Positions 37,156-60,397 of a DNA stretch of 64,000 nt are shown here, one piece after another (position 1 is the stretch's first letter; each line of letters starts with the position of its first letter). The notes under the pieces were generated by a model. That model did not search any database. It worked only from the letters and a program-made list of their open reading frames with translations, and was not told where the DNA came from. Source of the stretch: a virus. Taxonomy: Duplodnaviria > Heunggongvirae > Uroviricota > Caudoviricetes. The position numbers were made by a program, and so were the translations under genes. The stretch spans positions 1 to 64,000 of the IMG/VR virus record IMGVR_UViG_3300009551_000002; one strand, written 5' to 3'.

Positions 37156-37659
37156 TCACGATATCTCCATAAACTTCGGTGCTTCGTCGCGACCTAATAC
37201 ACAGTGGCATTTGATGAACACGCGACCGTGATTCGGACCTTCCTTCTTCACCTTGAATACTTTCATCGGCTGCTTGCAGTGTGGGCAGTCCTCGATGGCC
37301 AGCGCCATCTTGTAGAGCTTCTTCAACGTGTCGATCAAGCGCTTCTGCCAGCCCGGCGTACGGGTGATGTACTTCGAGATCTTGCTCCCCCACGCCGGAA
37401 ACCCAGGCTCGTGCGCGACGATCCAGCAGCGGATTGAATCCCCGCCTGTTTCAGCAGACCAACCGTTAGAGCGTACCGACGAGCGTACCATGACACCAAA
37501 TCGCGGTTTACCTACAATAGGGACAATATAGGAATATTCACCGTGAAGCAAACCGAGCGGCTTCCAAAGTCGCATATTAGAGCCCTCGCGTGCGATAGGG
37601 AGCGCCGCCTCGAACTGCTCGCGACTGAAAGTGTCTATTGGCATGATTTTTAGATGCAA
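37156..37659 (-). CDS. protein with C-terminal GRF/topoisomerase-type zinc ribbon
   Basis: CPHCKQPMKVFKVKKEGPNHGRVFIKC at the C-terminus. Confidence 0.45.
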   Translation of the reverse strand: MHLKIMPIDTFSREQFEAALPIAREGSNMRLWKPLGLLHGEYSYIVPIVGKPRFGVMVRSSVRSNGWSAETGGDSIRCWIVAHEPGFPAWGSKISKYITRTPGWQKRLIDTLKKLYKMALAIEDCPHCKQPMKVFKVKKEGPNHGRVFIKCHCVLGRDEAPKFMEIS

Positions 37660-37681
37660 TCAAAAGCGGTTTGGTTTCAGG
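37651..37681. repeat. 31-bp palindromic intergenic motif copy
   Basis: TTAGATGCAATCAAAAGCGGTTTGGTTTCAG. Confidence 0.6.
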
Positions 37682-38096
37682 ATCTAGGTGCGAGAAGTGC
37701 TGCCAATTCTTCCGCCGTGAACTTATCGGTTCCTTTCCTGCCGGTGCAGCGGAAACTGACAGACGAGCATCCGGCACCGTTCCAATCGTCGACCACTTTT
37801 AGCCCCATAGCGATCAATCGATCCTTCAGTAAACCGATGTCAGCGTGACTAAAATCGTTTCCAAGCGAACGATTGACTACGATGACGTCATTCGGTAGAC
37901 CGCCGCACCATCCGTGCGAATACGCCCACGGCTCTCCTAGCTGCGTAAGCGAGACGCCGGTATCCGTCACCTTGCCTCCAGTGCTATCGACCGCAGAGGC
38001 AATGGCCAAGCTTCTAGCCTGACTAGAATCCTCAGCTTCCACTTCTACGGCATAGCGACGAGTCACGGAGACCTTCGCCGAGTATTTTATCTTCAC
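37677..38096 (-). CDS. hypothetical protein
   Basis: 139 aa. Confidence 0.45.
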   Translation of the reverse strand: MKIKYSAKVSVTRRYAVEVEAEDSSQARSLAIASAVDSTGGKVTDTGVSLTQLGEPWAYSHGWCGGLPNDVIVVNRSLGNDFSHADIGLLKDRLIAMGLKVVDDWNGAGCSSVSFRCTGRKGTDKFTAEELAALLAPRS

Positions 38097-38299
38097 CTGT
38101 TTCTTAACCTCCTCGCTACCTGTTCTGCGTGCTTAGGGCAGAGTTGCTGTTTCTTGTGCAGACGCCACCCCCACCGATATAGCTCCCATTGACACTGATC
38201 GTGCGTCGGCAAAATAACAGTCATTCCCGCTTCGCAGCCGGGATGATCACATTTGACGTGGACCTTACAATTGCCCTCGAAATTTGATTCTTCATACAT
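38093..38299 (-). CDS. small Zn-finger protein
   Basis: CKVHVKCDHPGC...CPKH. Confidence 0.4.
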   Translation of the reverse strand: MYEESNFEGNCKVHVKCDHPGCEAGMTVILPTHDQCQWELYRWGWRLHKKQQLCPKHAEQVARRLRNR

Positions 38300-38321
38300 T
38301 TACGTCTATACTTATCCTTCC

Positions 38322-38531
38322 ATGGCCGGACGATCACCAGGACGCCCCAAAAAAGACTGCAAGCGGATGAGCATGAAACTGGCAACCGATGCTGCTGAAT
38401 TGCTAGAGGAATACTGCAAGCTCAACCGATTCGACGCTACCTTCGCCATCGAGAGCCTATTACGGCTCCACGTGCCGATACTGCTGGAACGGATGGAACG
38501 GAAGAAAGCAGCGGCGCATAAGACGTCATAG
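38322..38531 (+). CDS. ribbon-helix-helix-like regulator (opposite strand island)
   Basis: GRPKK...MSMKLATDAAELLEEYCKLNRFDATFAIESLL resembles an RHH; the only plus-strand gene inside the minus array. Confidence 0.35.
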   Translation: MAGRSPGRPKKDCKRMSMKLATDAAELLEEYCKLNRFDATFAIESLLRLHVPILLERMERKKAAAHKTS

Positions 38532-38819
38532 CTCAGCCTCCAATGTGACTACAGTTTTGCTCGTGTAGGTGCCTTTTACGTGCATCCCACGGATATTCGT
38601 TCTCCCTTTGAAGAAATACCGTTCTAGCTCGTGTTTGAATTCGTCTTCGTTCAGGTACGCTTCGTATGTGATGAAACGCTCAGTGCTCTCCGGGTAGCCG
38701 TGGCCGGGATTCGTTCGTGAGCGCTCGTCTCCGGGGATGTGGACGCTAGTGCTACCGATGATCGCCCAATGCTCACCTTTAGGGATCTCGTCAGGCGAAG
38801 TTACAAAGATTGCTGCCAT
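38526..38819 (-). CDS. hypothetical protein
   Basis: 97 aa. Confidence 0.45.
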   Translation of the reverse strand: MAAIFVTSPDEIPKGEHWAIIGSTSVHIPGDERSRTNPGHGYPESTERFITYEAYLNEDEFKHELERYFFKGRTNIRGMHVKGTYTSKTVVTLEAEL

Positions 38820-38821
38820 TT

Positions 38822-39022
38822 TTAGTACTCCTTGTGAAGGTCCCCCTGCTCAAAAACGTGCATGACGCCGCTATACTTTCCGGTAATCTCCAATTTCCAC
38901 CAACCGTACCACTCGAAGAGAATCTGAATCACTTCCACCCCCGTAAAACCAGAGCGTTTGACAGCGGCTAGGAGATCTTCACGGCGTTCTGCGGAATTCT
39001 TGGTTGTTCGTCTGCCTGCCAT
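38822..39022 (-). CDS. hypothetical small protein
   Basis: 66 aa. Confidence 0.4.
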   Translation of the reverse strand: MAGRRTTKNSAERREDLLAAVKRSGFTGVEVIQILFEWYGWWKLEITGKYSGVMHVFEQGDLHKEY

Positions 39023-39026
39023 TCGA

Positions 39027-39251
39027 TTACTCCTTGTAGATCGGTGTCACGCTTTCCTCAGTCGGTCCCACCCTCGTGCATTTGATTCCTTCATACCGGC
39101 ACCAGATTTCCAGGTCGCCTACTTTCTTTTGCTGGTCATACAACCCAAGACGCATTAGATACTCGCGAGCCGGGCGACTCAGGTCTATTTGATTCGTCTT
39201 CGCCGACATCCGGCGAATCCTGACCCTAACGGGACCGTTTCTTCGCGGCAC
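39027..39251 (-). CDS. hypothetical small protein
   Basis: 74 aa. Confidence 0.4.
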   Translation of the reverse strand: MPRRNGPVRVRIRRMSAKTNQIDLSRPAREYLMRLGLYDQQKKVGDLEIWCRYEGIKCTRVGPTEESVTPIYKE

Positions 39252-39254
39252 GTT

Positions 39255-39440
39255 TTAGTCCTTTACCTTATCTAGTCGCATGAGCCGCCAACCAAAGATC
39301 CTGATTATGGCCTTACGGTATCCAAAGCGCTCACTGAAGACTGGCTCGCTCCACGGTGTTAAGATCTGGTAACCAGCACCATTTAAGCTGCCGGTACGCC
39401 ACCAGATGCATTCTCGTTCGATGCTTAGAACCAGCTTCAT
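39255..39440 (-). CDS. hypothetical small protein
   Basis: 61 aa. Confidence 0.35.
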   Translation of the reverse strand: MKLVLSIERECIWWRTGSLNGAGYQILTPWSEPVFSERFGYRKAIIRIFGWRLMRLDKVKD

Positions 39441-39649
39441 CGTTTCTTTGCCAGCTTTGCCTTTGCCGCGATCCGAGCCGCTTTCCGGCGCTCACTACGA
39501 AGTACAGTACACTTCCGGCATTCGAGGGTAGGACTCTTGCCACGAGGCTTACGGCAGGTCACGCAATTGCCGCTATTTCTCCGGCGATGATAATGCTTGA
39601 GTTGCCGACTCATCGACGTGTTGGTAAATTTGTCTTCGATGTGTTTCAT
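39437..39649 (-). CDS. small basic Zn-ribbon protein
   Basis: CVTCRK...CRKC; K/R-rich tail. Confidence 0.4.
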   Translation of the reverse strand: MKHIEDKFTNTSMSRQLKHYHRRRNSGNCVTCRKPRGKSPTLECRKCTVLRSERRKAARIAAKAKLAKKR

Positions 39650-39978
39650 TTGGGGAGTTCTCCCTCCAAGTATTCGATCAGATGCTTGGCGTATGCCTTC
39701 ACGTAGTCGTGACCGTCGAAATTGAAGACGTAATGACGGTCGAAGCCTTTAGTGTCGGCATAGGCTTTCTTGAAGCGTTCGAGCTTCTCACGATCCCAAT
39801 TCACGAGATGGTTTTCATTGCTCATTTTGATAGCTTCAGCGTCCAAATATAAAAACACACGATGCCCAGAACGAACGTGATGATGTGAAGCCATAAAATG
39901 GCCTATACCTGCCGCCGCGTTCCCCATCGAGAGGCCGAGGGCCACGATAGAATACAGTAGCCAACGATGTCGGATCAT
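39646..39978 (-). CDS. hypothetical protein
   Basis: 110 aa, N-terminal TM. Confidence 0.45.
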   Translation of the reverse strand: MIRHRWLLYSIVALGLSMGNAAAGIGHFMASHHHVRSGHRVFLYLDAEAIKMSNENHLVNWDREKLERFKKAYADTKGFDRHYVFNFDGHDYVKAYAKHLIEYLEGELPK

Positions 39979-40229
39979 TGTCCTTTACGCTCCTTCCAGC
40001 GCTCTTCGAGCAGCTTCAGAGTTAGCATCTTCGTCTCTTCGGATGGGATCTCGTGGCCCCTCTTAGGCTTGCGGCCCGTCGCCTGGATGGCCTGTATCCA
40101 GGTTTCGTCTTTGATATTGACGCCGGGCTCCCAACCGGCAGCCATCAGCTTGTCGGCAAGATCGCCAGCTTTCTTGACGCGAGCGGCAAAGGCGTAATCG
40201 ATTGGCTCGGTAGGGTCGATAGGAGGCAT
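39975..40229 (-). CDS. hypothetical protein
   Basis: 84 aa. Confidence 0.45.
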   Translation of the reverse strand: MPPIDPTEPIDYAFAARVKKAGDLADKLMAAGWEPGVNIKDETWIQAIQATGRKPKRGHEIPSEETKMLTLKLLEERWKERKGQ

Positions 40230-40253
40230 GTGATATTATCTCTTTCTGTAAGA

Positions 40254-40284
40254 TTAGATGCAATCCGAAGCGGTTAGGTTTCAG
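40254..40284. repeat. 31-bp palindromic intergenic motif copy
   Basis: TTAGATGCAATCCGAAGCGGTTAGGTTTCAG. Confidence 0.6.
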
Positions 40285-40542
40285 TTAGTCTTGTACAAAG
40301 GCACGGCAACGTCGATTCTTACATGCGCCTGCATCGAGCGGTTCACTGCATACGATGCAGGTAGCGACGCTCCTATTCGATCCTTTGAGTGCGTCTTCGA
40401 TGTCCTTTACGTCGACTAAAAAGTGATGCAAGAGCGCTCCACCGGCCCACGGCTTAGGACCGGCGACGCGAATGTCGTTGATGTAAACGGACGGTCCTTC
40501 TATGCCGCCGACGATGTCGATGTAGACCTGAGGATTAGGCAT
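40285..40542 (-). CDS. hypothetical Cys-containing protein
   Basis: 85 aa. Confidence 0.4.
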   Translation of the reverse strand: MPNPQVYIDIVGGIEGPSVYINDIRVAGPKPWAGGALLHHFLVDVKDIEDALKGSNRSVATCIVCSEPLDAGACKNRRCRAFVQD

Positions 40543-40870
40543 CGAGATTAGTCCTCGTCCCTATAGACGCTTTCGGATTCGCCGTCACCTGGAGATACGC
40601 CTTACTGCCTTCGAGTTTGCGTAGAGTCAGTGTCACGTAAGGTTCACCGCTCGGGAAGCGTAAGGCCACGCACGGTCGATCCAATTTGAGCCAATCTTCG
40701 ACGGTGCCCTTATCGACAATCGACATAGAGAATTGGGCCGCTCTCTCACAAAGGCCGATCAGACGAATGGAGGTATTAAAGTCGATGAGTACACGGCTCT
40801 GATTGATCGTGAAGTCCCAGAAGCAATCCGGATTCGGTGGCGGCACGTGGCCGATGTCGACGCTATCCAT
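40535..40870 (-). CDS. hypothetical protein
   Basis: 111 aa. Confidence 0.45.
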   Translation of the reverse strand: MDSVDIGHVPPPNPDCFWDFTINQSRVLIDFNTSIRLIGLCERAAQFSMSIVDKGTVEDWLKLDRPCVALRFPSGEPYVTLTLRKLEGSKAYLQVTANPKASIGTRTNLDA

Positions 40871-41045
40871 TTCTCACCATGGCTTGCGCGTAATGCGTCC
40901 ATAAATACTCGACCGGGGAACCTTCAGTAACGACTTGCTGGGCAAAGACGCCGCCTTCGCACTTCCAACCAGTCGCTAAAGCAGACCTCACCTGAGTCGT
41001 AAAAGCAACTTTGTCGTCAGCCTCGACGACGATGTAGTCCATCAT
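40863..41045 (-). CDS. hypothetical small protein
   Basis: 60 aa. Confidence 0.35.
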   Translation of the reverse strand: MMDYIVVEADDKVAFTTQVRSALATGWKCEGGVFAQQVVTEGSPVEYLWTHYAQAMVRNG

Positions 41046-41434
41046 ATTTCGTTCTCCTTTGCGAGTCTTTCATTCTCCTTTGCAGCGCGTTCGGCGAACT
41101 CTTCAGCGTCTGCTATGAACTTGTCACGCTTCTCGGCGATGACGGCCATCGGCACGGTCGTATAGCAGCGCTGACAGACCATGAGTTCGTCCTTCTTGAG
41201 ATCCGGGAACTTCTCGCTCGCGACAGCGACGGCGTCGTCGGCATCGGGACCCATGATTTCCGCCATTTGCAGGCCGAAGAACTGTGCTATTCCCATGACG
41301 CGCTGCGTAGCTCTAGGATTGAGTACAGCGCGATCCACAGTCACCAGATAGAACATCGCGTACCGGGTGCCGTCTTTGCTTTGCAGCAAGCCTTCGTTGC
41401 AGTAATCGCATGGTCGTAATTCAGAGAGTTTCAT
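41042..41434 (-). CDS. hypothetical protein (Cys pairs)
   Basis: 130 aa; CDYC...CQRC. Confidence 0.45.
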   Translation of the reverse strand: MKLSELRPCDYCNEGLLQSKDGTRYAMFYLVTVDRAVLNPRATQRVMGIAQFFGLQMAEIMGPDADDAVAVASEKFPDLKKDELMVCQRCYTTVPMAVIAEKRDKFIADAEEFAERAAKENERLAKENEI

Positions 41435-41622
41435 TTGGTCCTCTGTTTCCTTGTCTGCCAGCGCCTCTCGATCAGCGCACGGAGCCGAGCCTGGACTTTC
41501 TTACCCTCCGCACGTTCTACTGGATCATCGGTCCATTCACCGTCCAGATGATCGGCAGCTTCTTCTAGGGCCTGCCCGTAGGCTTCCCATCGCTTATCCT
41601 TCGTCGGCTTCGACATTAGCAC
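41431..41622 (-). CDS. hypothetical small protein
   Basis: 63 aa. Confidence 0.35.
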   Translation of the reverse strand: MLMSKPTKDKRWEAYGQALEEAADHLDGEWTDDPVERAEGKKVQARLRALIERRWQTRKQRTK

Positions 41623-42112: not shown

Positions 42113-44020
42113 TCATAATTTCTCTTTCAGAAGTTCCGCAGGTTTCTCAAAACGCTCTTCAGTATTGAGAGCATCTTCGATCTCCGCTTGATATTCTTTC
42201 GTGATGATCGCCCCAGCACCCCCATAGATCTCAGGGATGCCGCCGACGAACGTGATATGCTTCTTAGCCCTAGTAACGGCCACGTAAGCAATGTTGTGCT
42301 CCTGCTCGATCTCCCACTCCTGCGTCGCCATCGGATGCGGCAACAATTCCGGCGCGAGCACGAACACGTTGTCAGCTTCGAGCCCTTTGGTACGATGTAC
42401 AGTACCCAGGATGACGGCATGCTTGGGCGCACCGTCCGCTTCAAAGTCCGCGAAGATCTCACGGATCTTGCTGATGACCTGGGAAGTGAGATCGACGCCG
42501 TCCATTAGCTCACGCAGAGTCTCATAGCGGTCGGTCAATGCGCCAATCAGCGCCTCAGAGTTCTTACGACCATGCAGCCGCGCCGTCTCCTTGCGGTAGT
42601 AGGAATTCAATTCCTTACCGAGTTCGAGAGTAGTCTCGGGGCTACCCAGTTTCTTGATGAGCGCTTCGAGACCAGCGCCGATGTCACGGCCACGAACGAC
42701 AGCTTTAACGCCACGTTGGATCAGTTCGTAGCAGATTGGAATCAGGTGACGATTCACACGGCAGAGAACGAGATCGCCGGGCTGCATGGCGTCGACGGCC
42801 TTGTCCTTGCTTAATTGTTCGTAGGTGCCTTCGATAGCGTCGTCCATGGCGGCAATAACGTCGTCGCCTACGATACGCTTAGCCATCTCGACGTGACTCT
42901 TCGGGCAGCGCCGGGTGACGGTGAGAGGCAATACCTGACAGCCGCGAGGATCGGCGAATAGCATGTCCTCGATGCGGGAAATCGCGCCGGTATCGGCCCC
43001 CCGGAAGCCGTAAATGCTCTGCCAACGGTCCCCAATAGCCATGATGCGACCCTTCGGGCACGCGATCTTGACGAGAGCTTGCTGTGCGCGGTCAGTATCC
43101 TGCGCTTCGTCGACGATGAGGATATCGAACAGGTCCGCTTTGAGATTCAGCACGACTGGTAGCCATGTCATGTCGTCGAAGTCGACGTGTTGAGGGTCGG
43201 CCATGTCCCACAGGATGAGCTTGGGGACGAGACCGAGAGCGAAGTCTTCAATTTTTTCGTCATAGTCGACATTGTGATAGTCGGCTAGATCGATGAGTTG
43301 CTGGCGATCCTGGCCGTCGTAGAGATAGTGCTTGCAGAGACGGACTAGCTGAGAGGCGAGTCGGCACGCCGCGTACCATTGGTCGTCGTCGGCAGTACCT
43401 TTGTCGGTCTTGGCGAGTTGGTCGATGAGACCGTCGAGCTTGTTTTCTTCGAGTTTGACTGTACCGTAATGATTGCGGAGGATCGACAGACCGAGCGAAT
43501 GGTAGGTCATCGCCTTGGCCGAGGCGTCCTTCTCTTTGATGAGACGGAGGACGCCCTGCTGAGCAGACGACGACTTGCCGCTGCCAGCACTCGCGTTGAT
43601 GAGCAAGTGGGATTCGTCGTTGAGCATGGCATCCCAGATGACATCCTGTTCAGGCGAGCCGACAAAGAACTCTTTGCCGGTCATGAGCTTGGTCTGCATC
43701 TCAGCAGCAATGTGCTTGTTGAACGCGATGATGCCGATGCGCGGGCCATTGCCGCCGATGGGCATATTCTTGGTGAAGGGCGAGCCGGTCGCTTTGGGAC
43801 GCTGATTGTATGTCGGCTCGTCGGATCGCGACGTGCCACGGTAGCCCATGCCGCCGCTACCAGGACGGCGAACGAACTTCTGTTTCTTGTCAGCAGGCGT
43901 ACACTCTTCGTGTGAAGTGACACGAGGGGTAACCGTGCTGTCGAGATCGATCATGTCGCCCTCGGAGATTGGGCGACGGCAGTAAGCGCACTTTCCGGGG
44001 AATTTGGCCGGGAATGACAT
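42113..44020 (-). CDS. UvrD/PcrA-like SF1 DNA helicase with N-terminal zinc ribbon
   Basis: Walker A NASAGSGKSS; motif II LIVDEAQD; motif VI-like VTRAKKHITFVG; N-terminal C-x2-C. Confidence 0.7.
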   Translation of the reverse strand: MSFPAKFPGKCAYCRRPISEGDMIDLDSTVTPRVTSHEECTPADKKQKFVRRPGSGGMGYRGTSRSDEPTYNQRPKATGSPFTKNMPIGGNGPRIGIIAFNKHIAAEMQTKLMTGKEFFVGSPEQDVIWDAMLNDESHLLINASAGSGKSSSAQQGVLRLIKEKDASAKAMTYHSLGLSILRNHYGTVKLEENKLDGLIDQLAKTDKGTADDDQWYAACRLASQLVRLCKHYLYDGQDRQQLIDLADYHNVDYDEKIEDFALGLVPKLILWDMADPQHVDFDDMTWLPVVLNLKADLFDILIVDEAQDTDRAQQALVKIACPKGRIMAIGDRWQSIYGFRGADTGAISRIEDMLFADPRGCQVLPLTVTRRCPKSHVEMAKRIVGDDVIAAMDDAIEGTYEQLSKDKAVDAMQPGDLVLCRVNRHLIPICYELIQRGVKAVVRGRDIGAGLEALIKKLGSPETTLELGKELNSYYRKETARLHGRKNSEALIGALTDRYETLRELMDGVDLTSQVISKIREIFADFEADGAPKHAVILGTVHRTKGLEADNVFVLAPELLPHPMATQEWEIEQEHNIAYVAVTRAKKHITFVGGIPEIYGGAGAIITKEYQAEIEDALNTEERFEKPAELLKEKL

Positions 44021-44040
44021 ATATTCTTCTTTCGTTAATT

Positions 44041-44070
44041 TAGATGATAACCGAAGCGCTTTGGTTACAA
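44041..44070. repeat. palindromic intergenic motif copy (variant)
   Basis: TTAGATGATAACCGAAGCGCTTTGGTTACA. Confidence 0.5.
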
Positions 44071-46901: not shown

Positions 46902-47017
46902 TGTGTCGTCCTTGTAGTTCTTGTGTCCTGTACATTTGATGTAATCCTGACCGGTTTGGATACCGATTTTTTACTACTTTGTAACTATACCACAGACTGA
47001 AAGCGCTTAGGCAAGTG

Positions 47018-49491: not shown

Positions 49492-49497
49492 ATCAGA

Positions 49498-49528
49498 TTA
49501 GATGTTATCCAAAGCGGTTAGGTTTCAC
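49498..49528. repeat. 31-bp palindromic intergenic motif copy
   Basis: TTAGATGTTATCCAAAGCGGTTAGGTTTCAC. Confidence 0.6.
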
Positions 49529-49529
49529 T

Positions 49530-49547
49530 AAAAAGCATGCTTTTTTT
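49530..49547. terminator. A/T palindrome hairpin (weak bidirectional terminator-like)
   Basis: AAAAAGCATGCTTTTTTT perfect palindrome just after a stop codon. Confidence 0.3.
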
Positions 49548-49559
49548 AGGGATGGGCCT

Positions 49560-50670: not shown

Positions 50671-51110
50671 AACAGGTCCCGCTCAATCTGCCGGATATCC
50701 TTTTTACCCGCCGTCCATTCGAGCAGCGCGTCAATCAATGGATTGATCCACGAATCACGATGAAGGCGCGTCGACTCCTTAATCGCTGCTGTTAGTTCGT
50801 CGGTTGTGAACGGCATCGCGAAAGGAAAGTCCATATAGAACTTACCCGGTACTTTGAAGGACGAAAATCCTGCCGATTCGTAGTTAGCTTTGCTTCGGAT
50901 CTCACGGAGGATACGCGCCAGTGTCGAACTCCGCGACGACTCACGCCGCCCCTGCTCAGCTTCTAAGCCGTTCAGGTAGTTGTGCCCCTCCTGCTCACGG
51001 TCGAGTAGTTTGACCGCCGCGTCCAGGTTGTTCAAGACGTAATCGCGGTTACTCTCGAAGTAACCATCGTCGTCAAGATCCAATGGCCGTCTGGGTTTGA
51101 TCTCAATCAT
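50667..51110 (-). CDS. hypothetical protein
   Basis: 147 aa. Confidence 0.45.
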   Translation of the reverse strand: MIEIKPRRPLDLDDDGYFESNRDYVLNNLDAAVKLLDREQEGHNYLNGLEAEQGRRESSRSSTLARILREIRSKANYESAGFSSFKVPGKFYMDFPFAMPFTTDELTAAIKESTRLHRDSWINPLIDALLEWTAGKKDIRQIERDLL

Positions 51111-52630
51111 GCGTTCTCCTGACCGGTCACGCTTAGCGCGTCATTCGTCTGCGGGTCCGGCAACGGATTGACCATCAGTTCAGGCGCGTCAATGCCGTAG
51201 TCGCCACGCGCGACACCTGCTGGGTCCGATGCTGACTCGGACTCGATCCAGTCCTCAGCCTCTTTAAGCGTGTTGAAACGTGCGACGACACGCGGGTCTA
51301 TTCCAGGTGGCGCATAAGTGACCGCGACGGGCGGATTGTTGGGGAGTGCTTCTAACACTCCCGCAAACCGTTCAATCTCTGCTTTGTTGAATAAATGGCA
51401 GCCTGCTCTAAGGTTGCCTTGCGTGTCTATCGAGTCGATAGCATAATGGCCTAGGTGGATCGTGTGCCCGTTGCGATGATACTCACGGCCATTCTGGACG
51501 TATGCCAGCACTACCGGGAGTGCCTTTTTGACGTGCTCTAATGGCACACGCGCGCCTTGTGAGGTCTGGACCTCGTTATCCTTGACGCGTAGGTAGGACG
51601 TGCCCGTCATGTATTGGCTAGGCAGTGAAACGCTTTCACCGGCAAGCCATAACGGTAGCCGCTCCTCGAACGTCTTGCGTTCGTTCTCTTGCTGTCTCGC
51701 CCAGCGCGTGTCACGCGTCGCCCGGCCTTTAAGACGCGCCGCTGCTACAGTCGCGTCATGCGCTACCATAACATCGTTCAGGTAGTCCAGGTCTGCCGGG
51801 ATTTCGACGGCAGGACCGTACCCAAAAAAGTCACCGATGGAATTGACCGCATACACTTTGGTACGCAATTTGGTATACAGTTTGGCCAGCGTGCCGGGAT
51901 TGCGGCTAATCGATCCAAACTCTTTCGCGACCTCATGCGCCTTCGCTACCTTTTTATAGAGTCGGTCGCGCTTCTCAGCCGTGGAAACGTCCCACGTCTT
52001 GATAGAGTCGAGGATATCGAGCATAATACGCGCTTCAGTCTTGCTAAGGCCAGACTGAATCGTCGTCCCTGCATTGACGCCGTTGCGTACCGCCAGCGTC
52101 CAATAGCCGTTGTCGCGCCAGTTGGTATTGCCTTTGTGCGCGACGACGTTACGACCGGCGACCGCATCGACCTCAGACGCCTCTTTATCGCGTCCCACAA
52201 GCGCGTTGAATTTGACCTTGGACGTCTTAACCTTGTACTCGTAGCGATTGTCTGGCCGCGTCCCTTGCAGTCTTTTAATCAGCGCTTCGACGTCTTTACG
52301 CTGGGAGTCGTAGGCGTTCTTTGGATCGCGCCCGCTATCGCGCGATAGATCTTCGACGTAGAACACGGGTACGCCGTCCGGGATCGACCGCCGCACATAG
52401 TTGATGTGCTTCGCCGTCGTGTTAGACCACTTTTGATTCGTGAACAGTACCGCCGCTTCGCCCTTGTCATTCGTGACGTGACGGGCAATCGGGAAATGAC
52501 TGCCATACGAGTAGATCGTATCGCCGCGAAAGTAGAAGTTACCGCCAGGGTTGCGCGCGTCGTCTTGCGTCTTGTGCGCCCATAAGTGGGCTATCTCGTC
52601 GGTCGGAAAAACATGCTTTGTTCTAGCCAT
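51107..52630 (-). CDS. large hypothetical protein (507 aa)
   Basis: Long ORF of ordinary composition; no family recognised. Confidence 0.55.
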   Translation of the reverse strand: MARTKHVFPTDEIAHLWAHKTQDDARNPGGNFYFRGDTIYSYGSHFPIARHVTNDKGEAAVLFTNQKWSNTTAKHINYVRRSIPDGVPVFYVEDLSRDSGRDPKNAYDSQRKDVEALIKRLQGTRPDNRYEYKVKTSKVKFNALVGRDKEASEVDAVAGRNVVAHKGNTNWRDNGYWTLAVRNGVNAGTTIQSGLSKTEARIMLDILDSIKTWDVSTAEKRDRLYKKVAKAHEVAKEFGSISRNPGTLAKLYTKLRTKVYAVNSIGDFFGYGPAVEIPADLDYLNDVMVAHDATVAAARLKGRATRDTRWARQQENERKTFEERLPLWLAGESVSLPSQYMTGTSYLRVKDNEVQTSQGARVPLEHVKKALPVVLAYVQNGREYHRNGHTIHLGHYAIDSIDTQGNLRAGCHLFNKAEIERFAGVLEALPNNPPVAVTYAPPGIDPRVVARFNTLKEAEDWIESESASDPAGVARGDYGIDAPELMVNPLPDPQTNDALSVTGQENA

Positions 52631-52655
52631 TCTGTGTTCGTGTCCTTTATGTCTG

Positions 52656-52686
52656 TTAGATGATATCCAAAGCGCTTAGGATTCAT
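52656..52686. repeat. 31-bp palindromic intergenic motif copy
   Basis: TTAGATGATATCCAAAGCGCTTAGGATTCAT. Confidence 0.6.
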
Positions 52687-52882: not shown

Positions 52883-53088
52883 TTCGAGACCTCCGCAGCT
52901 TCGACTGCTGCGCGTAACTTATTAACGTGCTCCGGTTTTATGTTCGCCATTGTCGGATTACATCCCACGATCCGCACGCGGTCTGCGTCGGTGATCCCTA
53001 CCGCATATCCGCGTCGGGCTAACTCGAAGATCGTCACAAAGTTCTTAGATGCTTCTAGCGCCTTCCGTTGTTTCTGTGTCATACTCAT
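52879..53088 (-). CDS. hypothetical small protein
   Basis: 69 aa. Confidence 0.4.
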   Translation of the reverse strand: MSMTQKQRKALEASKNFVTIFELARRGYAVGITDADRVRIVGCNPTMANIKPEHVNKLRAAVEAAEVSK

Positions 53089-53118
53089 TGGATGCTATCC
53101 AAATCGGTTTGGTTACAA
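53088..53118. repeat. 31-bp palindromic intergenic motif copy
   Basis: TTGGATGCTATCCAAATCGGTTTGGTTACAA. Confidence 0.55.
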
Positions 53119-53642: not shown

Positions 53643-54062
53643 TTATAAATCCTTTTTACGTGCCACGTCTGAAACCGTACACACGTATTCTACGCCATTT
53701 TCTCTACAAAGTAGAGAGATAGGGCCCTTGCGCGATCCATTCTCGTGACGGGTGATAAATGGCAGTCGCCCCATCATTTCAAGCTGTTCGACAATCCTAT
53801 CCTCGAAGTGATTGCCGTAGCCGTACTCGTAGCCGATCTCAGCCGCGATTTCGCCATTGATGAACGCCTTGGCACTAAAGTAGGTATTGCCATAGCGCCT
53901 ATCGAACCATCGGCGACCGATCACAGTGAGAGACCGCACGCGCGGTATAACGACGTGCGCGTCTGACTTGCCGGGAAACATCGTCGCCAATACGCCGCAT
54001 TGGATGCAATTACCGTCCGGCCATACACGCGGGTGCTTGCACTGTTCGTTTGTCATAGTCAT
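53643..54062 (-). CDS. hypothetical protein
   Basis: 139 aa; N-terminal C-x...C-x2-C. Confidence 0.45.
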   Translation of the reverse strand: MTMTNEQCKHPRVWPDGNCIQCGVLATMFPGKSDAHVVIPRVRSLTVIGRRWFDRRYGNTYFSAKAFINGEIAAEIGYEYGYGNHFEDRIVEQLEMMGRLPFITRHENGSRKGPISLLCRENGVEYVCTVSDVARKKDL

Positions 54063-54091
54063 TTGATGCGATCCAAAGCGATTAGGATTCA
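54061..54091. repeat. 31-bp palindromic intergenic motif copy
   Basis: TTTGATGCGATCCAAAGCGATTAGGATTCAG. Confidence 0.6.
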
Positions 54092-54895: not shown

Positions 54896-55114
54896 TTACT
54901 CCGTCAAAAGATCGGCCAGATTCGGGTATATGACCGCGATATCTGCCGGGACTTCCACGTGCCAACCGTTAGCAGTATGAACCGTCGTCAGAATGACATT
55001 TGATCCATGCCGCCGTAGGTAATTGGTCCCACGCCGCGCGTACTCACGCGCGTCTGCTTTGCCGTGCCGTGGGAAACTCACTGTTTTCTGTTCGTCCATA
55101 CTGATTAGATGCAA
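54896..55114 (-). CDS. hypothetical small protein
   Basis: 72 aa. Confidence 0.4.
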   Translation of the reverse strand: MHLISMDEQKTVSFPRHGKADAREYARRGTNYLRRHGSNVILTTVHTANGWHVEVPADIAVIYPNLADLLTE

Positions 55115-55135
55115 ACCAAAGCGCTTAGGATGCAG
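55105..55135. repeat. 31-bp palindromic intergenic motif copy
   Basis: TTAGATGCAAACCAAAGCGCTTAGGATGCAG. Confidence 0.6.
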
Positions 55136-55806: not shown

Positions 55807-56030
55807 CGCTGACCGTCCCTCGCGTCTTTGATAGCCTTCGACGCACGTATCAGGTCATCGTCCGCGACGAATAGCACATACGCATCGGATAACAGGTGCT
55901 CGAAACGAAACGAGATGCCAGCTTCGATCAGCACGTCCGCGTCGTTTTGGCAGCGTCCTTTTGTCGTGTTGCTCACTATGCTGTTTTTGTTCATGCTCAT
56001 TTGATGCGCTCCAAAGCGCTTTGGTTTCAA
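55803..56030 (-). CDS. hypothetical small protein
   Basis: 75-aa track ORF; N-terminus overlaps the motif copy, so the real start is probably the internal MSMNKNS. Confidence 0.35.
   Translation of the reverse strand: MKPKRFGAHQMSMNKNSIVSNTTKGRCQNDADVLIEAGISFRFEHLLSDAYVLFVADDDLIRASKAIKDARDGQR
56000..56030. repeat. 31-bp palindromic intergenic motif copy
   Basis: TTTGATGCGCTCCAAAGCGCTTTGGTTTCAA. Confidence 0.6.
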
Positions 56031-56032
56031 CT

Positions 56033-56311: not shown

Positions 56312-56871
56312 ACTTCAGTGAGTTTGCGCGCGGATTTCACGTATAGCGTGACGTTACCGCGTTCGTTCACATGGACGACGCCGCCGCGAAACCATTTGGG
56401 AACCTCAGACGTATCGGACACTTTAATGTCCGGCATAAACGCGCCAGACTTGAATTCCTGTTCGTCCAGTTCGTCTACTGGCGTAACATCGTCGTCCCAC
56501 GACTCACTGAGCCAGAATCCATAGTCCGCTCCATCGCCAGGGTGCGCGCCAAAGTAGAAGTATGGCGCGGCATACGATTGCAGCGCGTCTTCTAGCGCCG
56601 CTACATCGTCGGAAGCGTCGTCAGTGTCGAAGTAGTTTTCCAGTTCGTCCATGCGCGCCGTAATGTCGCGCACCAGTGCCGCATGCGCCTTGCGCGTCGC
56701 GCGATCCTGCTTAGGACCATACTTCAGTTCGTGCTCAAGCTGAGAGAGAAACGCCGGGATCAAATCCTCAGGTCTCATGGTGCCGCTGGAGACTGAGCCG
56801 ATTGAGTAGCGTGGTTTACGTTTTTTCGTTGCCATGTTTGTTAGATGCTTTCCAAAGCGCTTTGGATTCAC
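56296..56871 (-). CDS. hypothetical acidic protein
   Basis: 191-aa track ORF; real start probably the internal MATKKRKP at 56834, downstream of the motif. Confidence 0.45.
   Translation of the reverse strand: MNPKRFGKHLTNMATKKRKPRYSIGSVSSGTMRPEDLIPAFLSQLEHELKYGPKQDRATRKAHAALVRDITARMDELENYFDTDDASDDVAALEDALQSYAAPYFYFGAHPGDGADYGFWLSESWDDDVTPVDELDEQEFKSGAFMPDIKVSDTSEVPKWFRGGVVHVNERGNVTLYVKSARKLTEVWGIV
56841..56871. repeat. 31-bp palindromic intergenic motif copy
   Basis: TTAGATGCTTTCCAAAGCGCTTTGGATTCAC. Confidence 0.6.
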
Positions 56872-57249
56872 TTAATACGCTTTATCTGTCCCGATCCAAA
56901 AATGGTTGCCCTGTTCAATCTCGGACGCGTCTGCATCTGGGAACTGTGCGCGCCATGCGTCGAACTTGGCATAATACTTGCCCTTGTACAGCATGCGGTA
57001 CTCCAGGTATTGATAGATGCTCATGTCTGCGGGGCCATGAAAGAGATGTTCCGCCAGCTTGCGGACAGCATGTCGCCGATACTGCGGGAGTGATTTCATT
57101 TCCGGACTGTCATAGACCACGCGTTTGAGAAACGCGAAAGTATCAGCGGATGTCCGTTTGAATTGGACCGCTTCTCTGTAGACCTCGCGCACGCGGTCTA
57201 ATAGCGCGCGTTCGTTTTCGTATTGTTTATCCTGTCTGCTACGTTTCAT
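56872..57249 (-). CDS. hypothetical protein
   Basis: 125 aa; motif copy 6 nt upstream of its ATG. Confidence 0.45.
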   Translation of the reverse strand: MKRSRQDKQYENERALLDRVREVYREAVQFKRTSADTFAFLKRVVYDSPEMKSLPQYRRHAVRKLAEHLFHGPADMSIYQYLEYRMLYKGKYYAKFDAWRAQFPDADASEIEQGNHFWIGTDKAY

Positions 57250-57255
57250 GTTCTA

Positions 57256-57286
57256 TTGGATGCGATCCAAAGCGCTTTGGTTTCAG
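57256..57286. repeat. 31-bp palindromic intergenic motif copy
   Basis: TTGGATGCGATCCAAAGCGCTTTGGTTTCAG. Confidence 0.6.
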
Positions 57287-57633
57287 TTTTTCTTGGCGAA
57301 CGCGTCGCGCATGTTCCGGCGAAAGTCACTCACGAGCACGCGCGACGCTTCACGCTGTAACTTCGCATGGAAGTATCGACCTCGTGAACCATTCGCGTTC
57401 TTAGGTTTCCTGTAGTGGCACGTGTTCGCCCATTCGAGTAGACGCGTTACCTTGCTGCCGTCCAGCGTGTGGAAGTTAGCGCCAGTTTCGATCCCACAGT
57501 CTGCCAGGATCTTACGCGCGTTAATAGTCGGTTGCTCCGATGCGAAGTCATGGCGACCGAGTCGTTGGCCGATGTGATTAGGCATAGATCGCACCATCGT
57601 CACCGATATACAGACTGACCTCACCGTACGCAT
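57283..57633 (-). CDS. hypothetical protein
   Basis: 116 aa. Confidence 0.45.
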   Translation of the reverse strand: MRTVRSVCISVTMVRSMPNHIGQRLGRHDFASEQPTINARKILADCGIETGANFHTLDGSKVTRLLEWANTCHYRKPKNANGSRGRYFHAKLQREASRVLVSDFRRNMRDAFAKKN

Positions 57634-57958
57634 GCGCCTTCTCTGTCAACTCACGCCCGATCTTGCCTTGTGGCGTCGCATCGTTCCAACGGTCCCAGAA
57701 TCCAGCGCCGTGACGATTCCGCGTTAGCCAGAAGTCATGTCCAGCGCGCGCGGTGGTTTCGCCAGCTTCGCTATACCAGCGCTCCAACAGGTCCGCGTTT
57801 GCCTGCTCGAAATCCTCGCAGTCCTTGACCATTTGCGCGCGCGCGTCCGCTGATAGTTCGTGTTCGCCGCTGTCTAGTGGTCTGCCGTCGCCATCGGTCG
57901 AACTCCATAGCGCACACTCGATGTACGATTTCGTGAATGTTTCTGTCATTGTGTCCAA
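57578..57958 (-). CDS. hypothetical protein
   Basis: 126 aa; first gene of the minus-strand array. Confidence 0.45.
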   Translation of the reverse strand: MDTMTETFTKSYIECALWSSTDGDGRPLDSGEHELSADARAQMVKDCEDFEQANADLLERWYSEAGETTARAGHDFWLTRNRHGAGFWDRWNDATPQGKIGRELTEKAHAYGEVSLYIGDDGAIYA

Positions 57959-58211
57959 TCCTAACCGCTTTGGTTATGTCTAGTACAATCGTATAGACGC
58001 TTCATAACGTGCTTACGATTCAACTATTTTATCTCACTGATTCCACGCGCGTTAGAGTATCGTACATACTTATAGTTTCGGCGTGCTTACGCCAAACTAC
58101 CCTTATCTATATGACCTATAAAGACTTACGAGTTACCTAGAAAAACTGCCGTTTTATCCTTTGTATGTACGATATACCGGACCCGTCACCGGCTCACTAC
58201 CAGCGCGTTAT

Positions 58212-58241
58212 TTGCACGCTGCTCTAACTGTATGCTATATA
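58212..58241 (+). promoter_or_regulatory. sigma70-like promoter candidate (TTGCAC-18-TATATA) for gene 58278
   Basis: Lies in a lower-GC 320-bp divergent intergenic region; RBS AAGAGG before ATG 58278. Confidence 0.3.
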
Positions 58242-58277
58242 TGGATCGTCTTTTGCTAAGAGGTTGAAAACATTATC

Positions 58278-58592
58278 ATGACTCCTTCAACGCGTTTACG
58301 GCCTTCTGACGAACTCTCTTCCGTACCGTTCACTCGCGAGAGTAGGGACATGTTGCGAGCACTGGCCGTACGCTTTCATGACCTCGCCAGACCATTACCT
58401 GAACACGCCATTGTCGAAGTAGCTTTACGACGCCTTTATAGCGAATACTGCTTATTTGACAGTGAGGTACAACCGACAGACGTGACCTCTACGCGCCTCA
58501 TCAAACGGAATTCACTTCAGGTCTTGCAAGCCCGCTACCGCGAGTACATGAACCTTGAAACTATCGTGATTCGCAAGCGTCGCACGGCCTAA
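58278..58592 (+). CDS. hypothetical protein
   Basis: 104 aa with RBS. Confidence 0.45.
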   Translation: MTPSTRLRPSDELSSVPFTRESRDMLRALAVRFHDLARPLPEHAIVEVALRRLYSEYCLFDSEVQPTDVTSTRLIKRNSLQVLQARYREYMNLETIVIRKRRTA

Positions 58593-58613
58593 GGCAGTCG
58601 TCACCTTAGTCCA

Positions 58614-58642
58614 GGATGGGCCTTTTAGGGATGGGCCTTTAA
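58614..58642. repeat. tandem direct repeat GGATGGGCCTTTTA x2 (also at 49549-49562)
   Basis: GGATGGGCCTTTTAGGGATGGGCCTTTAA. Confidence 0.5.
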
Positions 58643-58985
58643 TTCCGTATGATCGCTTCTGCTAAGTGTTCTTGTTATGTGATACATGCGCGCGTGCGCG
58701 CACTGTAAGAACAGGCAGGTACTCATAGTACCGTACGTACGTTACCATCCTAAGCGCTTAGGATCGTTTGGGTATCGTATGTATCGGATGATCGGTAAGT
58801 TAAGCGATCACGTCGAAGGCGATGCGCCTGCACGTCGCGACCGTCTCTATTTGATGCAATTGTGAGGATATCGGACGCGTGCTAACGCTTCCGGTCGCAT
58901 GTAAAGGACACTAGGCGAGTACAGGACATCGTAAGCGCTTAGGATGCGCGTGGAGCGCACGCGCACGCGTCGCACACCAAATGGA

Positions 58986-59017
58986 AATGGCCATGGGAAC
59001 GTAATCCCATGGCCATT
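58986..59017. repeat. perfect 13-bp inverted repeat with 6-nt spacer
   Basis: AATGGCCATGGGA-acgtaa-TCCCATGGCCATT in a non-coding stretch that also holds alternating GC tracts (GCGCGCGTGCGCGC) and a TACGTACGTA palindrome. Confidence 0.55.
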
Positions 59018-59042
59018 GATGGAACGCGCGTTTATAGCGCGT

Positions 59043-59372
59043 TTATGCGTGTATTGGAGTTTGTTCTACAAATGCGACATTAGCCGGATCTTCAGTCAGC
59101 ATGACCGCTGATTGGTCGAAGATTCCGGCAAGCTTGGAAGCTTCAGCGCGTATGGTGACCTCAGGCGCATTGGTCATGACATCAACCGATAACGATGGTT
59201 CGCTGATAAGCGCACCGTCATGCATCCATCCGCCCATGGCATCATGCGCGGTATATCCGCCGAACGTCTCCGCGATATCAGTCAACGCGCGTTGACGTTT
59301 TGCGGATAGGTCAGTGATTGGACGGTTGGACGCGTCAAGCCCTTGGCCGATAGTGAACGTGACGTGATTCAT
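59043..59372 (-). CDS. hypothetical protein
   Basis: 109 aa. Confidence 0.4.
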   Translation of the reverse strand: MNHVTFTIGQGLDASNRPITDLSAKRQRALTDIAETFGGYTAHDAMGGWMHDGALISEPSLSVDVMTNAPEVTIRAEASKLAGIFDQSAVMLTEDPANVAFVEQTPIHA

Positions 59373-59917
59373 TGATTGTAACCTCCGACTAGTGGGAAGG
59401 ATTCCTGCAAGGTCGCTGCGAGTGGTCGCGCGTCGCGCGCATCGTTCGTGATGATGGATTCAACGTAGGTATCACCAAAGGGATAGATACGCACTGCGAC
59501 GCGCGTAACTGAGCCGATGCGCGTATGGAGTTCGTCAAGGTAGTGGCGTGCGACAGACCGCGCGAGTAGCTCGCACGATATCGTCACCGGGCCAAGTGAG
59601 GCGAAGTAGGTACGGAAGTCTAGGTTATCGAGTAGAAACCCGTTCGAGTCTAGCGCGTCAGACGTATAGTCGATATCGACCATGTAACGAAGCTTGCAGC
59701 GTTCGTCATTGATGCCACAGTGTTTCGTTCCAGGTACGACATTGATGGTGAAATCGTCCGAGGAATGCTGGTGGTAAGTGTAGGTCATATCGCCACACCT
59801 AACGCGTGCAGGATCGACAGACAGAAGACGATACAGAAGATCGTCGCGACGATGATACTGGTAATCCATGACATGACTAACGATTCTCCTTCCGGTATTC
59901 ATTGAACGCGTACCCAA
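59369..59917 (-). CDS. T-fold protein resembling 6-pyruvoyl-tetrahydropterin synthase/QueD (catalytic Cys-His-Gly-His motif not conserved)
   Basis: GFLLDNLDFRTYFASL and ISCELLARSVARHYLDEL parallel QueD GWIIDFAELKAAF and TSEVLAKWIWDQV; CxxxHGH is replaced by CGINDER. Confidence 0.3.
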   Translation of the reverse strand: MGTRSMNTGRRIVSHVMDYQYHRRDDLLYRLLSVDPARVRCGDMTYTYHQHSSDDFTINVVPGTKHCGINDERCKLRYMVDIDYTSDALDSNGFLLDNLDFRTYFASLGPVTISCELLARSVARHYLDELHTRIGSVTRVAVRIYPFGDTYVESIITNDARDARPLAATLQESFPLVGGYNQ

Positions 59918-60095
59918 AGCCGGATACCAGCAGCGCTACTAACAGGTGTGCAAAGTGAGTCATGGCTATATCTCCTCCGCGACGCCAACGAACATAATCG
60001 CGATATCCGCGATTACCCAAAGTATGGAGACGATCGTCAAGACTACTAGGTGGGTCTCGTATGCGGTCCCAGCACACGTCGCGAGTTCGCACCAT
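59877..60095 (-). CDS. small membrane protein
   Basis: C-terminal TM helix. Confidence 0.3.
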   Translation of the reverse strand: MVRTRDVCWDRIRDPPSSLDDRLHTLGNRGYRDYVRWRRGGDIAMTHFAHLLVALLVSGFGYAFNEYRKENR

Positions 60096-60195
60096 AACCG
60101 AGACCGTTTAGTAATCTTGACGACCTTGGCAGCATGACGAACGTGCAATGGTGCCGTGTGCAAGGGTGCCGTGTGGTGTTGTTTCGCGCGTGCCA

Positions 60196-60381
60196 TTAGT
60201 TGACCTCCTCATTGTTCATGTTGGTAGCAGGCGCATCATTGAGAGGTAGCGCGTTCGTGCTGTACTCGCAATTGCAGAGTAGGTCTACCAGTGATGTCAG
60301 CAGGTTTATCAGGTGTTGTCTCATATTCGTGGTTCCTTTCGTCGTACGGGAATAGACTACAGATAGACAGACGCAATCCAA
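60196..60381 (-). CDS. hypothetical small protein
   Basis: 61 aa. Confidence 0.3.
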   Translation of the reverse strand: MDCVCLSVVYSRTTKGTTNMRQHLINLLTSLVDLLCNCEYSTNALPLNDAPATNMNNEEVN

Positions 60382-60397
60382 AGCGCTTTGGTTGCAT
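60370..60397. repeat. palindromic intergenic motif copy (core)
   Basis: GACGCAATCCAAAGCGCTTTGGTTGCAT. Confidence 0.55.

Follow-up and report, generated by a model that had tools for sequence, protein, structure and literature searches.

The C1 operators of phage P1 and the inverted repeats of Streptomyces phage phiC31 place the sites of one regulator across many early transcription units, where they overlap phage promoters; both phages are temperate, and their repressors are known. The start-associated sequences of Cluster K actinobacteriophages contain the ribosome-binding site at a fixed 3-8 bp from the start codon. Sigma factors of the extracytoplasmic function (ECF) type, group 4 of the sigma-70 family, have regions 2 and 4 only. 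Here we analyze a 31-nt repeat that precedes small minus-strand genes in a 64,000-nt stretch of a Caudoviricetes genome (positions 1 to 64,000 of IMG/VR record IMGVR_UViG_3300009551_000002; this whole stretch is called the window below). The closest described phage promoters include those of Salmonella phage 7-11, whose sigma factor gp47 serves eight promoters of the form GTAAtg-16-aCTA with transcription starts 6-9 bp downstream, and the promoter tAATGTAtA of phiEco32 gp36; between these two phages, the diverged sigma factor is accompanied by a changed promoter consensus (PMC8948821). Promoters of the ECF sigma factors have tgaAAC at -35 and CGTC or CGTA at -10, separated by a spacer of 14-17 bp whose sequence modulates recognition (PMC5758882). 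For Cluster O actinobacteriophages, leaderless mRNAs were predicted, whose +1 coincides with the initial base of the start codon (PMC4351075).

The window belongs to a 119-kb contig (ERZ27252311:k141_4886077, 119,375 bp) assembled from a rhizosphere soil metagenome, and several samples contain contigs nearly identical to it. About 78 kb of this contig were covered, and all statements on absent genes refer to that portion. The DNA replication genes are on the plus strand. Leftward from a divergent junction at ~60.4-60.7 kb, small minus-strand genes of unknown function form a 35-kb block that extends to an array of ~31 tRNA genes (24880-29501, minus strand); 2-3 additional odd tRNA-like calls are at 19428, 24880, and 25021.

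The 31-bp motif that the earlier note had described in front of minus-strand genes is real. Between 37.6 and 60.4 kb we observe 11 strong copies, two weaker ones, and 3-4 palindrome-only sites, with ~0.2 expected. The palindrome CCAAAGCGCTTTGG occurs 14 times with at most two mismatches, compared with 0.17 expected from shuffles. With a weight matrix for the whole 31-mer, the 11 strong copies score 42-48 bits and the weaker matches 32 bits (60366-60396) and 25 bits (46934-46964), while shuffled sequence tops out at ~12 bits. Every copy is in the minus-strand orientation. A scan of both strands of the window found nothing comparable outside the 37.6-60.4 kb block or on the plus strand, and no copies are present in the 5.5 kb preceding the window or in the 8 kb following it. 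The coordinates of the 12 sites listed previously are accurate to within 1-4 nt, and two more sites had been overlooked, the degenerate copy at 46934-46964 and the dyad-less one at 57992-58022. The accompanying claim of a perfect 14-bp palindrome holds for four copies only (56011, 56852, 57267, and 60378), the others having one or two mismatches.

Homologues of a 507-aa and a 104-aa protein of the window led, through a large protein database and contig look-ups only, to related contigs, so that we distinguish lineages A (the window phage), B (L018), C (L019), E (L037/L038), and F (L040), in addition to lineage D (L020/L021). Synteny with the window is clear, and the syntenic proteins of L018, L019, L037, and L040 are ~30-86% identical to those of the window. 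The individual sites in the window, with the orthologous positions in these lineages, are as follows.

60366..60396, minus strand: first predicted promoter-operator copy of the block, TGCAAC-N17-CGTCTG; its 14-bp dyad is perfect, and a ~50-nt leader with a Shine-Dalgarno sequence leads to a 42-aa open reading frame (ORF; 60196-60324).
57992..58022, minus strand: dyad-less outer elements TGAATC-N17-CGTCTATA, orthologous copies with other spacers are at L018 6466 (lineage B) and L040 9757 (lineage F).
57255..57285, minus strand: predicted promoter-operator copy TGAAACCAAAGCGCTTTGGATCGCATCCAAT; ATG 57249 of a 125-aa gene, 7 nt past CATCCA, with no Shine-Dalgarno sequence; the TGA of the copy doubles as the stop of the upstream ORF.
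56840..56870, minus strand: predicted promoter-operator copy; ATG 56835 of a 179-aa gene, 6 nt past CATCTA; the N-terminus MATKKRK is kept in the lineage B and F orthologues.
55999..56029, minus strand: predicted promoter-operator copy; ATG 55994 of a 63-aa gene, 6 nt past CATCAA.
55104..55134, minus strand: predicted promoter-operator copy, TGCATC variant; ATG 55099, 6 nt past CATCTA; the TAA stop of the upstream ORF falls within the dyad (CCTAAG).
54061..54091, minus strand: predicted promoter-operator copy; ATG 54056, 6 nt past CATCAA; the TGA of the motif terminates the upstream 195-aa ORF.
53087..53117, minus strand: predicted promoter-operator copy, TGTAAC variant; ATG 53082, 6 nt past CATCCA.
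52655..52685, minus strand: predicted promoter-operator copy; 26-nt leader with AAAGGAC, then the 507-aa gene (51107-52630); orthologous position in lineages B, C, E, and F.
49497..49527, minus strand: predicted promoter-operator copy; ATG 49491, 7 nt past CATCTA.
46984..47014, minus strand: sigma-70-like promoter TTGCCT-N19-TGG-TATAGT with the core AAGCGCTT right after the -35 element; conserved in lineages B, E, and F.
46934..46964, minus strand: degenerate copy GGTATCCAAACCGGTCAGGATTACATCAAAT, in tandem behind the preceding sigma-70-like promoter; orthologues in lineages B, E, and F (GGAATC...CATCNAAT).
44039..44069, minus strand: predicted promoter-operator copy; 20-nt leader, then a UvrD-like helicase gene (42113-44020); orthologous position in lineage B.
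40253..40283, minus strand: predicted promoter-operator copy; 25-nt leader, then an 84-aa gene.
37649..37679, minus strand: predicted promoter-operator copy; ATG 37644 of a 162-aa gene, 6 nt past CATCTA; the motif's own TGA is the stop of the upstream ORF.

Aligned on the minus strand, the copies read TGAAWCC-WAASCGCTTTGG-ATnGCATCTAAT over 31 nt. This is an asymmetric two-part signal, TGAAWC-N17-C(A/G)TCTAAT, with the spacer occupied by the imperfect 18-bp dyad ATCCWAAGCGCTTWGGAT; downstream of CATCTAAT the sequence is not conserved. The outer elements stand out by themselves, as the pattern TGNAWC-N17-CRTCNW matches the window 13 times with 1.4 matches expected. Twelve of these matches lie on the minus strand inside the block, each with a distance of exactly 17 nt between TGNAWC and CRTC, and 11 of the 12 contain the dyad. 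In lineages B, C, E, and F there are 4-9 copies each, oriented like the small genes, and the two elements are again 17 nt apart (16 nt in one dyad-bearing copy). Among 36 copies, the triplet of the -35-like element is AAC in 24 and ATC in 12. The -10-like element is CGTC in lineage C and in about 2-3 window copies, including those at 57992 and 60366, and CATC elsewhere.

Comparison of orthologous positions separates the outer elements from the dyad. In some copies the dyad core is displaced by 1 nt (TGAAAC-CAT-AAGCGCTT versus TGAAAC-CT-AAGCGCTT) with the outer spacing unchanged. In the orthologous set formed by 57992-58022 in the window, L018 6466, and L040 9757, TGAATC-N17-CGTCTATA is kept around three different non-palindromic spacers. 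Copies are retained before the same genes, namely, before the 507-aa gene in five lineages and before the helicase gene in two. The fixed 17-nt spacing, replaceable spacer, variable downstream context, conserved positions, and enrichment together argue for a promoter rather than a plain binding site.

In eight of the 11 strong copies an ATG without a Shine-Dalgarno sequence follows 6-7 nt past CATCTA, and in the remaining three it follows at 20-26 nt, so that the proximity to minus-strand starts noted earlier, sometimes with overlap of the preceding stop, is borne out. The stop codon of the preceding ORF lies inside the motif (in its own TGA or in the dyad's CCTAAG) or at most 6 nt from its 5' end, also in eight of 11. 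With a stop in or near the motif and an ATG right behind it, the motif fills the whole gap between genes. Most genes of the window have a clear Shine-Dalgarno sequence. Source gene calls and independent calls give the same gene layout. Orthologous proteins from different lineages begin at the same methionine (MATKKRK, MTTKRK, and MTKRKR; MKTDKLW and MTTEKLW), and therefore these start codons are genuine. Over four lineages, 16 copies have an ATG without a Shine-Dalgarno sequence 6-7 nt past CATCTA (eight in A, three in B, four in E, and one in F). The remaining copies have the ATG 16-29 nt past CATCTA, preceded by AGGAG or AGGAC; in lineage C all copies are of this leadered type, with the ATG 16-23 nt past the motif. 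A lineage F gene that has no such promoter is joined to the previous gene through an overlapping TAATG. Eight window genes are thus predicted to give leaderless mRNAs that would start on the A of the ATG.

Taken together, these data suggest, with a probability of about 0.6, that the copies are phage-specific promoters with an embedded operator. Each copy would be a compact cassette that controls transcription within the leftward block of small genes. TGAAWC as the -35-like and C(A/G)TCTA as the -10-like element, 17 nt apart, would form a promoter of the ECF-sigma type, read most likely by the host core RNA polymerase with a small sigma-like protein of the phage. Transcription is predicted to begin 6-7 nt past CATCTA, which is the A of the ATG in eight of the 11 strong copies, while other copies would give 16-29-nt leaders with Shine-Dalgarno sequences. 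A start at this distance accounts for the spacing, spacer replacement, ATG and leader contexts, kept positions, and enrichment. A regulator bound to the 18-20-bp dyad would cover the -35 element and the spacer and shut the promoters together. Two suggestions of the earlier note are thereby combined: the phage-specific promoter is the best supported by the fixed 17-nt outer elements and by the ATG and leader context in relatives, and the embedded dyad agrees with an operator for a single phage regulator, so that the motif would be promoter and operator together.

The outer elements suggest a promoter class. TGAAAC, TGTAAC, or TGCAAC followed after 17 nt by CGTC or CATC resembles ECF-type sigma promoters, although the match is imperfect; the spacing, 17 nt in the 12 window copies and 16-17 nt in relatives, is within the range of these promoters. 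The phage also has ordinary TTGACA-N17-TAnnAT promoters, which argues that the host uses canonical primary-sigma promoters and that the motif is a second class. Reading the motif itself as a primary-sigma promoter (nTGAAA...TCTAAT) was rejected, as the two elements would then be separated by a 20-bp spacer and the -10 hexamer would not have A as its second base. A generic scan for sigma-70 promoters and terminators gave nothing above chance. A sigma-like protein, named in the earlier note for a binding assay, is indeed encoded in the window.

62221..63075, plus strand: gene of the divergent operon for a 284-aa sigma-like protein of the sigma-70 family (ECF/FliA-like), the candidate factor for reading the promoter.

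The gene for a sigma-like protein occupies the same slot beside DUF6527/BubE in all four checkable lineages, A, B, E, and F (window 61640-63075; L018 1769-3107; L037 13258-14045; L040 12785-13575). The lineage B protein (341 aa) is recognized by TIGR02937 with 61 bits (cut-off 42.9) and by Sigma70_r2, and matches FliA and WhiG structures. The window protein and those from lineages E (157 aa, 33 bits) and F (165 aa, 18 bits) have sub-threshold matches to several sigma models. All four align, with 27-39% identity across lineages, and have a region-2-like N-terminus in common. The nearest solved structures to the model of the window protein are sigma factors, with weak, not significant scores. 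The two long forms (284 and 341 aa) have a common repeated C-terminal PE-x-RS-x2-A-x-RVW motif, and one of them has a second helix-turn-helix. No match was found by tblastn of the sigma-like proteins against cultured phages. From the co-occurrence and the promoter type, the protein encoded at 62221-63075 may be tentatively proposed to read the copies, at somewhat less than even odds.

The dyad points to a separate module, a predicted operator for a dimeric phage regulator. Inside promoters it is imperfect: pairs 1, 3, 4, 7, and 9 are almost invariant, and pairs 2, 5, 6, and 8 vary without compensation. In this form it is present in 11 of 12 promoters, and perfect or near-perfect 20-bp versions stand alone in the window at the first two of the following positions, which are given with a further dyad-only site and a candidate gene:

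58927..58946 (matrix position 58918), strand not assigned: stand-alone 20-bp palindrome CATCGTAAGCGCTTAGGATG with one mismatch, 181 bp from the next site.
58745..58764 (matrix position 58737), strand not assigned: stand-alone perfect 20-bp palindrome CATCCTAAGCGCTTAGGATG.
57956..57975 (matrix position 57948), strand not assigned: dyad-only site CCAAAGCGGTTAGG, downstream of the dyad-less promoter at 57992..58022 and just before an ATG at ~57950.
58278..58592, plus strand: gene for a conserved 104-aa protein, located within the block in antisense orientation and between dyad sites; a candidate for the dyad binder by position only.

The first two sites, taken previously for degenerate half-sites at 58747 and 58926, are actually the best palindromes of all. 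A perfect 20-bp site, AATCATAAGCGCTTATGATT, is also found in lineage B (L018 4172-4191), and lineage C has a perfect version outside the promoter context as GACCATAA-CGGC-TTATGGTC. In other cases, the dyad is combined with promoters of the sigma-70 type. In lineages B, C, and F its core overlaps the spacer and -10 element of the near-consensus TTGACR-N16-TATGAT/TAGGAT promoter heading the block, and in lineages A, B, E, and F the core follows the -35 element of a TTGCMT-N19-TATAGT promoter. One dimeric protein occluding both promoter classes is the simplest account, and this favors a repressor for coordinated shut-off. An isolated dyad-like site without the -10 part, GAATCCTAAGCGCTTTAG (25672-25685, minus strand), sits where a plus-strand block meets the end of the leftward block.

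The 104-aa protein is a positional candidate for the regulator because its gene, with a TTGCAC-N18-TATATA promoter of its own, lies in antisense orientation between dyad sites. Its low-confidence AlphaFold model (pLDDT, the predicted local confidence score, of 60) has an extended N-terminus and three helices. The label of a ribbon-helix-helix protein that it had received was not confirmed by Pfam, the Protein Data Bank (PDB), or Foldseek, and this fold was dropped after hhalign comparison with Arc, Mnt, and CopG gave a probability of 0.07%. A genuine PadR-family gene (40 bits; window-equivalent 64976-65389) is conserved in lineages A, E, and F.

Several observations weigh against the promoter-operator interpretation or against its proposed components. 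The -35 element ends in AAC in only about two thirds of copies and in ATC in the rest, and in lineages A, B, E, and F the -10 element reads CATC where CGTC would be canonical. The region-4 match of the window sigma-like protein, 27 bits, is below the cut-off of 42.9, and its structural model is of low confidence (pLDDT 66). The sigma-like proteins of lineages A and B are only ~27% identical, as compared with 50-86% for neighboring proteins, and yet the promoter is nearly identical. No sigma-70-type promoter was recognized before the sigma operon. The 104-aa protein has no DNA-binding fold detectable by Pfam, PHROG, PDB sequence, or Foldseek searches, and there is no dyad near the PadR-like gene.

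Because the sigma factors diverged while the promoter stayed the same, unlike in phiEco32 and 7-11, the link between them is weakened, which leaves room for a host sigma factor. In this scenario, unlikely in our estimate and still the strongest of the alternatives, the same architecture is read by an infection-induced host ECF-type sigma factor, or by the primary sigma factor with a dyad-binding activator, and the phage sigma-like protein serves other genes. It would agree with the constancy of the promoter, and with the absence of a motif copy upstream of the sigma gene, where ECF autoregulation predicts one. Further, in lineages A and E even the promoter that heads the block is of the motif type, and so the reading factor must be available early. 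On the other hand, the sigma-like gene accompanies the motif in every testable lineage, CATCTA does not have the final T of a primary-sigma -10 hexamer, a dyad over the -35 element and spacer is poorly placed for a classical activator, and reliance on a stress-gated host sigma factor would be unusual in a phage.

Of slightly lower probability is a three-element promoter, in which the spacer dyad would itself be read in recognition by a minimal sigma factor or its partner, and the cassettes would also serve as recombination joints shuffling early genes. Translation of the small genes would then depend on their own promoters, since read-through transcripts carry an ATG without a ribosome-binding site.

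A further alternative, which we consider improbable, is an array of operators only, with transcription starting elsewhere and with TGAAAC and CATCTAAT as extended contacts of the binding repressor or activator. The symmetry of the dyad, the stand-alone perfect palindromes, and the dyads within sigma-70-type promoters are all expected from such an array, and dispersed operator arrays of other phages are similar (PMC4351075). However, the motif is strongly asymmetric and strictly oriented, and the 17-nt outer spacing persists when the dyad is shifted or absent. Operators alone would also leave eight genes without a Shine-Dalgarno sequence, translational coupling, or a promoter, and would not explain the constant 6-7-nt distance to the ATG.

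Gene content between the copies is mosaic across lineages. The copy that comes after the f10 gene leads to f16 in lineages A and F and to the unrelated gene f29 in lineage B, while in lineage E a copy with f29 is upstream of f10. One and the same 29-mer, TGAAACCATAAGCGCTTAGGATACATCTA, stands before three different genes in lineages B, E, and F. This fits promoter-gene cassettes as units of exchange, which is compatible with the promoter-operator interpretation and does not replace it. A stronger version, in which the main role of the repeats is to bound mobile promoter-gene cassettes for recombination, a role proposed for T4-type promoter-stem-loop elements, and regulation is secondary, could draw on the same mosaicism and the same 29-mer; it is very unlikely, as it presupposes the promoter rather than excluding it, and orthologous copies are kept before the same genes (507-aa and helicase) in up to five lineages.

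The least probable reading, hardly credible in our view, is a hairpin in RNA or single-stranded DNA (an N4-type promoter, translational operator, processing site, or terminator): the palindrome could form a 5-pair stem and the perfect stand-alone site has a better fold than its shuffles (z = -2.0), but six out of seven promoter copies show no such gain over shuffles and fold into structures that are all different, many of the 36 copies have uncompensated mismatches at arm positions 5 and 6, the dyad center is ~25 nt from the ATG and not 11, no T-run follows the palindrome, an Rfam scan of 30-64 kb is empty, and no polymerase gene was called in the ~78 kb covered.

Promoters of the N4 type have a stable hairpin of 5-7 bp, centered ~11 nt upstream of the start and read by a giant virion RNA polymerase; the same data do not support this reading, which the earlier note had mentioned along with T7-type promoters and a single-subunit or virion RNA polymerase. 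A T7-type promoter is one continuous asymmetric element of ~23 bp that spans the start and is read by a phage single-subunit RNA polymerase. No gene for either type of polymerase is among those called in the ~78 kb covered, and the signal is two-part, with a fixed 17-nt spacer and a middle section that is replaceable, as in 57992-58022 and its orthologues; both facts contradict a T7-type promoter. Three other candidates were rejected. A MerR-type promoter requires a 19-20-bp spacer versus the 17 nt found here, and no MerR-family protein was detected. A start-associated sequence is not consistent with the lack of a Shine-Dalgarno sequence in the motif and with the variable distance to the ATG (6-7 or 16-29 nt). 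The Rfam scan likewise gave no known RNA family.

The motif was not found in the more distant lineage D. In L020, the homologous 460-aa gene is preceded by a TAGAAT -10 element and, 16 nt upstream of that, by a different palindrome, CCGCAACCGTTGCGG, which recurs in a non-coding stretch of 2.7 kb (L020 regions 1-2700, 7290-7419, and 12193-12256; also in L021). Wider searches were negative: a near-identity DNA search gave no match among cultured phages, exact-pattern scans of IMG/VR gave zero matches and then one chance-like match, a JGI metagenome scan gave only the same phage and chance matches, a GTDB genome scan for the motif gave zero matches, protein-guided locus searches in IMG/VR and GTDB found nothing, and a literature search with the motif sequence retrieved no relevant paper. 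A similar 31-mer, TGTATCCWAACGGCTTAAGATATCRTCAAAC/GAC followed by a T-run, is present at L030 4-34 and L035 7457-7487 (JGI Ga0049107; 44-46% GC) and may be a related signal in an unrelated phage.

Several other features of the window can be described. Directly upstream of the copy at 49497 is the palindrome AAAAAGCATGCTTTTT (49528-49548), kept at L018 ~7440 and L037 ~9490, which may be a weak terminator or a further binding site. The antisense 104-aa gene is flanked by gene-poor stretches (58593-59042 and 57976-58277) that contain a direct repeat of GGATGGGCCTTT in two copies (58614-58640; conserved at L018 ~5850-5890), GC-rich palindromes (GCGCGCACGCGCGC), and the conserved GCATCAAATAGAGACGG. 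The conserved 109-aa protein of the first operon (59043-59372) has a faint similarity to the S-adenosylmethionine lyase family (E = 0.09) and DUF3574; an early anti-restriction role would fit, although the match is too weak to rely on. The DNA polymerase is split into two genes (7306-8838 and 12206-13621), one with a UDG-like domain and the other with the PolA domain, and NADAR, GIY-YIG endonuclease, and Band_7 genes lie between them. A possible module for the modification of DNA or nucleotides lies at 15705-23583; it encodes a 676-aa DUF8224 protein, 51% identical to those of phiCbK-like phages and ~49% to those of ~160-kb Salmonella phages, and, after it, a glycosyltransferase-sulfotransferase fusion (20259-22040) and an APS-kinase-like protein (23029-23583).

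The results provide a testable regulatory map for a clade of large soil phages that is known only from metagenomes, with no match in cultured-phage records or IMG/VR. The map consists of about a dozen transcription units with predicted starts, together with candidates for a phage sigma factor and for a global operator. If the promoter-operator interpretation is true, a sigma promoter, an operator, and a leaderless start are fused in one 31-bp gap-filling unit, and translation of a gene is tied to its own promoter. The heavy use of leaderless starts hints at a host that translates such mRNAs well, for example, an actinobacterium, and could help in host assignment.

Unlike P1 and phiC31, the phage has no integrase or immunity repressor that we could see in the covered part of its contig. 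As in 7-11 and phiEco32, a highly diverged phage protein of the sigma-70 family is found together with 6-8 or more near-identical promoters, which in 7-11 are also two-part. The promoters of those phages, however, serve middle or late genes and have no conserved spacer dyad; the link between sigma factor and promoter was shown in vitro there and is deduced from sequence here, and leaderless starts are not mentioned for them in PMC8948821. The Bacillus subtilis promoters of sigma W, X, M, and V share with the motif the -35 variants TGAAAC, TGTAAC, and TGCAAC, some CGTC at -10, and a strong adherence to consensus (PMC5758882). The 17-nt spacer is at the upper end of the ECF range. In contrast to ECF promoters, the -10 element is mostly CATC, one third of the -35 elements end in ATC, the conserved spacer is a dyad and not a T-tract, and an autoregulatory copy is absent.

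Many copies of a short motif along small leftward genes are also characteristic of the 17-bp repeats of Cluster O, the stoperators of Cluster A, and the start-associated sequences of Cluster K actinobacteriophages (PMC4351075). Cluster O repeats are symmetric, unoriented, often intragenic, and without a tie to promoters, whereas the dyad here is inside a predicted directional promoter. Stoperators are asymmetric sites for a monomeric repressor, unlike the dyad, and start-associated sequences are closely tied to translation starts, whereas here the distance to the ATG varies in relatives. Thus, phage sigma factors with conserved promoters, operators over many phage promoters, and leaderless phage mRNAs are each already known. 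What is most likely new is that, in an uncultured phage clade, all three are predicted to be fused within a single 31-bp unit, with sigma promoter, operator, and leaderless start together taking up the entire space between two genes.

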